Below the pieces are notes generated by a model that ran no database searches, was not told the DNA's origin, and saw only the letters and a list, made by a program, of their open reading frames with translations. From a virus, in UHGV virus genome UHGV-0338605: a DNA stretch of 29,450 nt; one strand, given 5' to 3'. The position numbers were made by a program, and so were the translations under genes. Shown here in pieces: positions 27,532 through 29,450 of this stretch (position 1 is its first letter; each line of letters begins with the position of its first letter).

Positions 27532-27823
27532 GCTGCTTTTACTGATTGCCAATGCGGTTATCTGTTCAGCTATAGCAATCCGCGTCGGTACATTCAGGCG
27601 TAATGGATCGCAACACCGCCGGTGGGGTGGGTGGATAGCCTACTTCCTTATCGTGGCATCAGCCAGCATCCCCGTCCGGGCTGCATATGCAATCTGGTAT
27701 CACACACCAATGTCCGCTGATTTATCAGAGGTCATCATCAATGCTGTCATGCTTGCCGCCGTTCTGAAGACGCGCGGTAACGTCGTGCAGATATTCAAAA
27801 TATCGAGGTCTCAACATGAGTGA
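27518..27823 (+). CDS. second holin-like / antiholin-like membrane protein (101 aa)
   Basis: GGGGAG RBS; overlaps the upstream gene's 3' end; three hydrophobic segments. Confidence 0.55.
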   Translation: MTTHELLLLIANAVICSAIAIRVGTFRRNGSQHRRWGGWIAYFLIVASASIPVRAAYAIWYHTPMSADLSEVIINAVMLAAVLKTRGNVVQIFKISRSQHE

Positions 27824-28295
27824 ACTTGCATGGATTTCTGAAGGAAGAAAATATATAGGGCAACTGGAAATCAAAGGCCCTCGTCATAATCCTCTAATTC
27901 TCCAGTTCTGGAAGGATATTAAACGAGGTGGTATCAAAGATGATGAAACGCCATGGTGTGCTGCATACGTCGGATCAATGCTCGAGCGTGTCGGAATCAA
28001 ATCAACCCGTTTCGAGTCTGCAAAATCTTACCTCAACTGGGGCGTCGAAATTAGCGAACCAGCTTATGGGTGTGTAGTGGTATTCAATCGTGACGGTGGC
28101 GGACATGTCGGGTTTGTTGTCGGACAGCAACAGAACGGTGACCTGATGGTGCTGGGCGGTAATCAGTCAGATGCCATCAATATTCGTGCATTTTCACGCT
28201 CCCGTGTCACCGGTTACCGCTGGCCTGTTAATGTTGCCAAGGACAACAGGAAGTTACCTTTAATGACCGGCTCATTATCGGTGAGTGAATCATGA
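27816..28295 (+). CDS. putative endolysin (Cys/His peptidase-type peptidoglycan hydrolase, 159 aa)
   Basis: ETPWCAAYVGSML and GGGHVGFVVG motifs suggest a Cys/His hydrolase of the type often found as endolysin beside holins (TIGR02594-like, from memory); overlaps the upstream stop. Confidence 0.6.
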   Translation: MSELAWISEGRKYIGQLEIKGPRHNPLILQFWKDIKRGGIKDDETPWCAAYVGSMLERVGIKSTRFESAKSYLNWGVEISEPAYGCVVVFNRDGGGHVGFVVGQQQNGDLMVLGGNQSDAINIRAFSRSRVTGYRWPVNVAKDNRKLPLMTGSLSVSES

Positions 28296-28774
28296 TCAGA
28301 GCATTCATGAAAGCGTACTGGAAACAGTTGCTTATCGTGGCGATGCTTGCTGCTCTGGTGATCGTCGGCGTTGTTGCCTGGAATGTTCATGGCAGCCGAC
28401 AGTATGACGCCGGGTATGCGCAGGCAAAGACAGACCGTAAAACCGAAGATGATAAAGCTCGTCAGCACGACGAACAGGAGAAAGCAATCAATGAACGTAA
28501 AGCGCAGCAGAGGATCGACCAGGCGCGCAATGATGCTCTTGATGCTGCCGCTCGCGCTGGCAGGTTGCAGCAACAGCTCGTTGCCATCCGTGAGCAGCTC
28601 AGGCAGTATAACGCCATTGTCGGCGCTGGGCCGTCAGCCGCAGACACCGGTGTTTTGCTTGCCGACTTGCTCAGCAAATCTCTCGAGCGAAACCGACAAC
28701 TGGCAGAGTACGCTGATCGGGCAGCCGAAGCAGGAAGAGTCTGTGAAAAGCAGTACGATTCGCTGACCAGGTGA
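28292..28774 (+). CDS. Rz-like i-spanin (160 aa)
   Basis: N-terminal transmembrane segment LLIVAMLAALVIVGVVAW followed by a charged coiled-coil-like region; ATG overlaps the endolysin stop (ATGA). Confidence 0.7.
   Translation: MIRAFMKAYWKQLLIVAMLAALVIVGVVAWNVHGSRQYDAGYAQAKTDRKTEDDKARQHDEQEKAINERKAQQRIDQARNDALDAAARAGRLQQQLVAIREQLRQYNAIVGAGPSAADTGVLLADLLSKSLERNRQLAEYADRAAEAGRVCEKQYDSLTR
28491..28766 (+). CDS. Rz1-like o-spanin lipoprotein embedded in Rz in the +1 frame (91 aa)
   Basis: AGGAG before ATG 28491; signal peptide with lipobox LALAGC; Pro/Ser-rich mature part; entirely within the Rz gene, as in lambda Rz/Rz1. Confidence 0.6.
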   Translation: MNVKRSRGSTRRAMMLLMLPLALAGCSNSSLPSVSSSGSITPLSALGRQPQTPVFCLPTCSANLSSETDNWQSTLIGQPKQEESVKSSTIR

Positions 28775-28941
28775 CATGGCATTTTTCATGGTACTGATTT
28801 CCGGCGACGGTATATAAAACGGTATTGGAAATTTTGTTTCTTTAAAAGTTGTTGTCAGTCAATTACTTATGTTGTCCGTAAATAATTGAGTGGGAATGAT
28901 TTGACCCTGCACTATGAATGAACAAAACCCTCTGTTACTAC

Positions 28942-29450
28942 CTGTCTCTTGATCAGATCTCCTGATCAAGAGACTTCATCACCAGGTAACCCTCAACCAT
29001 ATCCTGAAGTCTGAACCAGCCATCCCACATGACTACCCAACCGGGGCGACCGGTGCGTTTGCTGTCATGCCATCGCCCCAGTTTCGCCAGTTTCAGACAG
29101 GCCCATTTCAGTGTCGGCATCTGTGACGGAAGCGGTTTTCCTTCCAGCTTAACCCACAGCAGTTTCCACTCTGTCGGCGTCAGTATTTTCTCACAGCTGT
29201 CATTTTGTGTTTCTTCACTGATACCGCCCTGCCGCAGGCCCAGCACCCGCACCGCGATAAACGCCTTGATAACCACCATGCGCTCGAGGTTATCCCGGGT
29301 CTGCATTCGCAGCGATTCCACACATGTACCACCACTTTTCCACGCCTTGTGGTATTCCTCTATCAGCCAGCGTCGCTCGTAATGGCTGACGATACGTCGC
29401 GCATCGGCGGCACTCGCCACTTTTTCTGACGTCAGCAGATGCCAGCAGGC
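28942..29450. mobile_element. IS50-like (IS4 family) insertion sequence, one end only; runs off the window
   Basis: 28942-28960 CTGTCTCTTGATCAGATCT matches, from memory, the 19-bp inside end of IS50; the adjacent minus-strand ORF is a Tn5-transposase-like C-terminus. Confidence 0.75.
28953..29450 (-). CDS. IS4-family (Tn5/IS50-like) transposase, C-terminal part; 5' end beyond window
   Basis: Translation contains IEEYHKAWKSGG, DNLERMV, ILTPTEW, DSKRTG, W.GW, matching the conserved C-terminal blocks of Tn5 transposase as recalled; stop TGA lies inside the terminal repeat. Confidence 0.75.
   Translation of the reverse strand, partial: ACWHLLTSEKVASAADARRIVSHYERRWLIEEYHKAWKSGGTCVESLRMQTRDNLERMVVIKAFIAVRVLGLRQGGISEETQNDSCEKILTPTEWKLLWVKLEGKPLPSQMPTLKWACLKLAKLGRWHDSKRTGRPGWVVMWDGWFRLQDMVEGYLVMKSLDQEI

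Follow-up and report, generated by a model that had tools for sequence, protein, structure and literature searches.

Transposition of Tn5 leaves a fixed 9-bp duplication of the target, and IS231A has GGG(N)5CCC as its target. For Tn5 itself, the passages on target choice in two papers give a weak A-GNTYWRANC-T consensus only (Goryshin et al. 1998, as cited in PMC2266710 and PMC1525189). The first of these papers puts the duplications of the IS4 family, in the passage concerned, at about one helical turn (PMC2266710), and in the corresponding text of the second, ISRm22 is the only member of the family named as palindrome-targeting, with insertions in REP elements (PMC1525189). The text of the IS4 family review, its figure apart, contains no target rule for the IS50 group. 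Likewise, we found no description of a palindrome or terminator target rule for this group in the searchable literature, a scope outside which ISfinder and subscription papers fall.

The element described here belongs to the IS50 group and occupies the last 509 bp of a 29,450-nucleotide stretch of viral DNA (UHGV virus genome UHGV-0338605; hereafter the window), the rest of which is a prophage resembling phiV10, epsilon15, and TL-2011b. We compared the element, ISEc13, with IS50 and Tn5. The inside ends agree at 19/19 positions and the other ends at 17/19; both elements carry the stop codon and GATC sites within the end, and both encode a three-domain transposase with DDE and YREK motifs. They are similar in length (1534 bp for IS50 and 1550 bp for ISEc13). 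Unlike IS50, ISEc13 has a 13-bp hairpin, in which the end is repeated further in as an inverted copy, and its other end has an 11-bp hairpin. In contrast to the fixed 9 bp and the weak consensus of Tn5, insertions of the ISEc13 type have duplications of 8, 9, or 10 bp and a strong preference for CCC...GGG palindromes. In this respect, ISEc13 resembles ISRm22 and IS231A, which likewise insert at the dyad of GC-rich palindromes between convergent genes and produce variable duplications of about one helical turn; however, those elements belong to other subgroups of the IS4 family, and the polarity of the ISEc13 motif is CCC...GGG.

An ISEc13 copy at the end of the window

The features on which the analysis rests are given below in window coordinates.

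28292-28774, plus strand: Rz-like spanin gene (DUF2514), the last gene of the lysis cassette, assigned from its open reading frame, the Pfam DUF2514 match, and the neighboring holin and CHAP endolysin genes.
28885-28902, no strand: attR core ATTGAGTGGGAATGATTT, delimited by the limits of host and free-phage identity and by a four-way alignment.
28924-28941, no strand: left part of the guaA/yfgI terminator hairpin (AAAACCCTCTGT-TACT-AC, cut at this point by the insertion), recognized from the intact form in L009, E2348/69, and ET846.
28942-28960, plus strand: 19-bp terminal repeat, equal to the IS50 inside end, with its boundary set by alignment of copies that have unrelated flanks.
28942-29450, minus strand: ISEc13 (IS4 family, IS50 group), 509 bp of the inside-end side of a 1550-bp element that runs off the window, assigned from 100% identity to annotated copies.
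28944-28974, no strand: perfect 13-bp inverted repeat GTCTCTTGATCAG / CTGATCAAGAGAC with a 5-nt spacer (arms 28944-28956 and 28962-28974).
28953-29450, minus strand: 3′ part of the transposase gene, comprising the last 165 codons and the TGA stop (28953-28955), assigned from Pfam and alignment to the IS50 transposase.

Over its entire visible length the element is identical (509/509) to RefSeq copies annotated as 'IS4-like element ISEc13 family transposase' (WP_000244358.1), including those of E2348/69, B19374, and others. By the convention of ISfinder, elements with more than about 95% DNA identity are the same IS. Judged by its sequence, 28942-29450 is ISEc13, an element that is already known and catalogued and is common in E. 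coli. Of 5426 complete E. coli genomes, 2477 contain ISEc13-like DNA, at up to 32 places per genome, and in 1078 a place spans 80% or more of the 509 bases; E2348/69 has 30 chromosomal places and a further copy on plasmid pMAR2. A full copy (L001:2501-4050) measures 1550 bp, encodes a transposase of 457 aa, and ends on its other side in CTGTCTCTTATACACAAAT, which agrees with the IS50 outside end at 17 of 19 positions. No copy of CTGTCTCTTATACACAAAT was found anywhere in the window, in keeping with the statement in an initial annotation, made from the sequence alone, that the element runs off its end. All visible bases, the end sequence, and the transposase C-terminus are those of ISEc13, and only the insertion site is particular to the window.

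The terminal repeat CTGTCTCTTGATCAGATCT (28942-28960, plus strand) has no other match in the window at three or fewer mismatches, and shuffled sequences give an expectation of zero. To locate genuine IS50 copies, plasmids were searched using the sequence of Tn5 transposase in the PDB alignment. The reference copy, on plasmid pMAK2 (L010), adjoins aph(3')-IIa and has the ends CTGACTCTTATACACAAGT (outside) and CTGTCTCTTGATCAGATCT (inside), and the window 19-mer matches the latter at 19/19. The TGA stop of the transposase lies on the minus strand within the 19-mer, in the same register as the IS50 stop (...ATC TGA TCA AGA GAC AG), and the frame is open from there up to the window end at 29450. 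Alignment of five copies with unrelated flanks places the IS boundary at exactly 28942. A boundary further to the left was rejected, as the extension of some matches by 14-17 bases reflects unrelated flanks that share the target motif. Between the end of the Rz-like gene at 28774 and the start of the element there are 167 bases. The initial annotation had taken the 19-mer to be the IS50 inside end and had noted the transposase stop inside it as in IS50, both of which the comparison with the Tn5 of pMAK2 bears out; its figure of 168 bp for the gap was off by no more than one base.

Over the 165 aa that the window encodes, identity to the IS50 transposase is 43%. The complete ISEc13 transposase is 39% identical to it and matches the crystal structures of Tn5 transposase (PDB 1MUH, 1MUS, 4DM0, and others) with an E value of 6e-84. 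In the full copy, Pfam detects PF14706 (Tnp_DNA_bind), PF01609 (DDE_Tnp_1), and, just below the cut-off, PF02281 (Dimer_Tnp_Tn5); in the window fragment it detects PF01609 and PF02281. The fragment includes the YREK motif, Y(2)R(3)E(6)K, with the catalytic glutamate (HYERRWLIEEYHKAWK, aligned to IYTHRWRIEEFHKAWK of IS50), and both aspartates, in LEDTTT and CDREADI, align in the full copy and lie off the window. Regulation of the IS50 type involves an inhibitor protein made from an internal start, together with Dam control of the inside end; Met56 of IS50 is aligned with a valine in ISEc13. With a whole-element DNA identity of about 53% to IS50, these values agree with the view, already taken in the initial annotation, that the transposase C-terminus is only similar to that of Tn5 and that the element is an IS50-group relative.

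Two GATC (Dam) sites lie within the 19-mer (28951-28954 and 28956-28959), and a third lies next to it (28964-28967). These three sites, in or beside the end, suggest Dam control by analogy with the inside end of IS50. In the 13-bp inverted repeat, the terminal repeat recurs, inverted, a short way into the element. The inverted repeat codes for the C-terminus of the transposase, SLDQEI* (last six residues), and is positioned at the 3′ end of the transposase message; the minus-strand RNA of 28925-28990, which includes this hairpin, has a predicted folding energy of -24.4 kcal/mol (z -3.5). At the other (outside) end of ISEc13, a perfect hairpin with 11-bp arms overlaps the terminal repeat (L001:4010-4040). 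The terminal repeats are of the type expected for the IS50 group, about 19 bp long and starting 5'-CTG(T/A)CTCTT, and relatives as distant as about 40% protein identity have the same ends. The two ends of IS50-group elements remain asymmetric even at transposase identities as low as about 40-50%, the upstream end reading ...CTCTTATACAC and the stop-codon end ...CTCTTGATCA, and GATC is always present in the stop-codon end across the IS50-group loci. This pattern suggests that a Dam-sensitive inside end is an old, conserved feature.

Other readings of the element itself fare poorly. Were it IS50, either within Tn5 or solo, the identity of the 19-bp end and the equally placed stop codon would be accounted for, but the sequences part directly inside the 19-mer, neither the DNA (about 53%) nor the transposase (39% overall, 43% over the window fragment) approaches identity, and all 509 bases are instead 100% identical to ISEc13 copies; we reject IS50, the chance of which is negligible. 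It is also very unlikely that the element is a truncated remnant made up of a solo end and a partial transposase gene. Just 509 bp are visible, and partial matches are common, with some match in 2477 genomes and at least 80% of the 509 bases in only 1078 of them; yet what is visible agrees at every base with intact copies that have the complete 457-aa frame, the reading frame stays open right up to where the window ends, and a sister contig (L158) likewise breaks off about 100 bases inside the IS, as assemblies typically do at multi-copy repeats. Most likely, the window stops inside ISEc13 because a short-read assembly was broken by this multi-copy element.

The prophage end and the interrupted terminator

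In E. coli genomes that lack the prophage, identity to the window starts only at 28885, under the annotated 3′ end of guaA, and in free phage genomes (epsilon15, SPN1S, and phiV10) it extends only to about 28900-28902. From these two limits of identity it follows that the attR core, which holds the last four guaA codons and the stop (ATT GAG TGG GAA TGA, 28885-28899), is intact together with the right end of the prophage, and that the IS starts 39 bp further out, in host intergenic DNA. The equivalent part of epsilon15, between Rz and the integrase gene, is annotated as the Int/IHF-site region, and the last lysis gene is annotated as Rz-like in epsilon15 and phiV10 relatives. In related prophages of E2348/69 and ET846, the same lysis cassette is followed directly by the same terminator, yfgI, yfgH, and pdeF.

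The window endolysin (27816-28295) is of the CHAP/TIGR02594 type, and an endolysin of glycoside hydrolase family 19 is found at the equivalent position in the E2348/69 prophage and epsilon15; the difference looks like a cassette swap within a conserved holin-endolysin-Rz module. Just past its att core, epsilon15 has a terminator of its own, AACCCTCTGTTTTTACAGGGGGTTTT (L159:1849-1878), which is closely like the host guaA terminator.

The element interrupts an intrinsic terminator hairpin, a strong fold between the convergent genes guaA and yfgI. The hairpin is intact in L009, E2348/69, and ET846 (AAAACCCTCTGTTACTACAGAGGGTTTTTT; arms AAAACCCTCTGT-TACT-ACAGAGGGTTTTTT), where it has a predicted folding energy of -20.1 kcal/mol (z -6.0), compared with -0.8 kcal/mol for the stump left in the window. 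L009 (run SRR18173595) shares 6650 bp with the window, up to 28941, without a single difference, and then runs on into the intact hairpin. It represents an isogenic empty site, that is, the same prophage without the IS, a comparison proposed in the initial annotation. Two suggestions made there, namely that the IS had inserted into the prophage or that it marks a rearranged prophage edge, are not supported by the mapping, which rejects a position inside the prophage: the att analysis puts the element 39 bp beyond an intact core, and the otherwise identical L009 has an uninterrupted site.

We searched for both junctions of the insertion. Among 5426 complete E. coli genomes, none contained the left junction, the best query coverage being 70% and arising from the IS part alone, and the exact left junction had no match in contigs from one genome per species. 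Among viral contigs, it was found once, in the sister contig L158, which ends about 100 bases into the IS; the right junction, with a duplication of 6-12 bp allowed, had no match in the viral contigs. The IS junction of L158 is at the identical nucleotide, and an integrase/AlpA-like island flanked by the same att core lies between its prophage and the terminator. Either site-specific recombination took place at this core, at a distance of 39 bp from the IS, or two independent insertions struck the hairpin. The island (L158:11669-11819, L007:6484-12483), of about 18 kb as estimated from contig coordinates, carries integrase, AlpA-like, and AAA_25 genes in a tandem integration via the same core, GAGTGGGAATGATTT.

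Target preference of ISEc13 and its relatives

Relatives of the ISEc13 transposase were gathered from species-representative genomes, metagenomes, and viral contigs, and 27 unique complete insertions of ISEc13 and its relatives with a clean direct repeat were analyzed (the loci include L001, L004, and L018-L150). A perfect stem of at least 5 bp was centered within 1 bp of the duplication center in 23 of the 27, compared with 3.3% of random control positions (binomial P ~1e-30), and most insertions were centered exactly on the dyad. The duplications measured 8 bp (nine insertions), 9 bp (10), 10 bp (six), or 12 bp (two), lengths of about one helical turn, as given for the IS4 family (PMC2266710), and not a constant 9 bp. 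In 34 unique right flanks of ISEc13-type elements, G made up 74-79% at +11 to +13, counted from the IS end. Neither C nor T occurred at +11 or +12, and the left flanks mirrored this pattern. The resulting target consensus is roughly CCC(C/T)-[duplication]-(A/G)GGG. Many of the target sites look like intrinsic terminators, and one lies inside the eutA coding sequence. In L150, an ISEc13 copy with 100% identity occupies CCCCTGT-ATTA-ACAGGGG, a target almost the same as that of the window, and its duplication measures 8 bp. These counts rest on surviving insertions, to which selection against insertions in genes could contribute; the exact centering and the flank signature argue for a real target choice.

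Several complete copies elsewhere have no clean duplication (for example, pMAR2, L026, and L038). The flanks of L026 and L038 swap cleanly between the two copies, and the duplication-less copies are partly explained by recombination between copies. At the loci of some distant relatives (L044, L123, L133, and L116), the flanks are exact reverse complements of each other and not a direct duplication, for example CCCCCGGATCAAGTC on one side of the IS and GACTTGATCCGGGGG on the other.

We tentatively propose that ISEc13 and its IS50-group relatives may be palindrome-targeting elements, a generalization we consider possible but somewhat less than an even bet. A two-fold symmetric transposase complex would align on the CCC(C/T)...(A/G)GGG dyad, often in a terminator or REP-like sequence, and the stagger of the cut would vary between 8, 9, and 10 bp according to how the palindrome is spaced. 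If so, the guaA terminator would be a hotspot that can be predicted, and different strains may have received their insertions there independently.

A probable simple insertion and its predicted consequences

We favor, with a probability of roughly 0.92, the reading that a copy of ISEc13, a 1550-bp cut-and-paste DDE IS, has split the guaA/yfgI terminator of the host, at a distance of 39 bp from the attR core, itself intact, of a phiV10/epsilon15-like prophage at the guaA 3′ end. The transposase gene reads toward the prophage (minus strand). The element cuts the terminator hairpin at its loop and top, a site probably chosen through a preference for CCC(C/T)-[8-10 bp]-(A/G)GGG palindromes, which the terminator fits, and the nearness to the prophage would be incidental. 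By analogy with Tn5, the transposase would bind both 19-bp ends and form a synaptic dimer, excision would proceed via hairpin intermediates, and the element would be joined to a bent target at positions that are staggered; its activity would be damped where the GATC sites in the end are methylated by Dam.

On homology, the copy is expected to be complete and to be followed on the far side by an 8-bp (or 9-bp) duplication, GTTACTAC, and then by AGAGGGTTTTTT and yfgI. By symmetry, GTTACTAC would occupy 28934-28941 on the visible side. After 29450, the rest of the ~1550-bp element would end in ...GTGTATAAGAGACAG, and the right junction would read GAGACAG, GTTACTAC (or TGTTACTAC), and AGAGGGTTTTTTATC... 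on to yfgI. Written across the junction, ...GGATTTGTGTATAAGAGACAG would be followed by GTTACTACAGAGGGTTTTTTATC for an 8-bp duplication or by TGTTACTAC... for one of 9 bp. The far flank of a simple insertion would be (T)GTTACTACAGAGGGTTTTTT, followed by yfgI.

The alternative to a simple insertion is that the IS marks a rearranged edge of the chromosome or prophage, where recombination between copies, following an insertion or in place of a simple one, has deleted or inverted DNA so that the far side is not the yfgI half of the terminator. The substrate for such events is ample, given up to 32 ISEc13 places per strain; several full copies elsewhere do lack a clean duplication (pMAR2, and L026 and L038 with their swapped flanks), and the right-hand junction was not found in the collections searched. 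However, the left junction is exactly what a simple insertion at the hairpin center predicts and fits the target rule, and the prophage side is untouched to its last base, with 100% identity to L009 over 6650 bp and an intact attR core. We regard a rearrangement as unlikely, and even if it had occurred, it is the host DNA to the right that would be altered and not the prophage. For the simple insertion that we favor, excision of the prophage is predicted to be unaffected by the IS, because the insertion leaves the core intact and every arm site is on the phage side of it.

In itself, the observation is an ordinary one, a catalogued IS outside an intact prophage end, and the only potentially new point is the palindrome-centered, variable-stagger target preference of ISEc13 and its IS50-group relatives. 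For the prophage, the right end and the lysis cassette are intact, and the neighboring IS gives no reason to doubt excision; the ISEc13 copy also probably accounts for the contig ending where it does. For the host, the insertion interrupts no coding sequence and destroys the terminator hairpin shared by guaA and yfgI, with the consequence that transcription of yfgI may continue into the IS and that late phage transcription may enter the transposase gene in antisense. If the target rule holds, the ISEc13 transposase, a close structural relative of Tn5 transposase, would have strong selectivity for GC-rich palindromes and a variable stagger, which could inform target choice by Tn5-type transposases and help predict IS hotspots at terminators.
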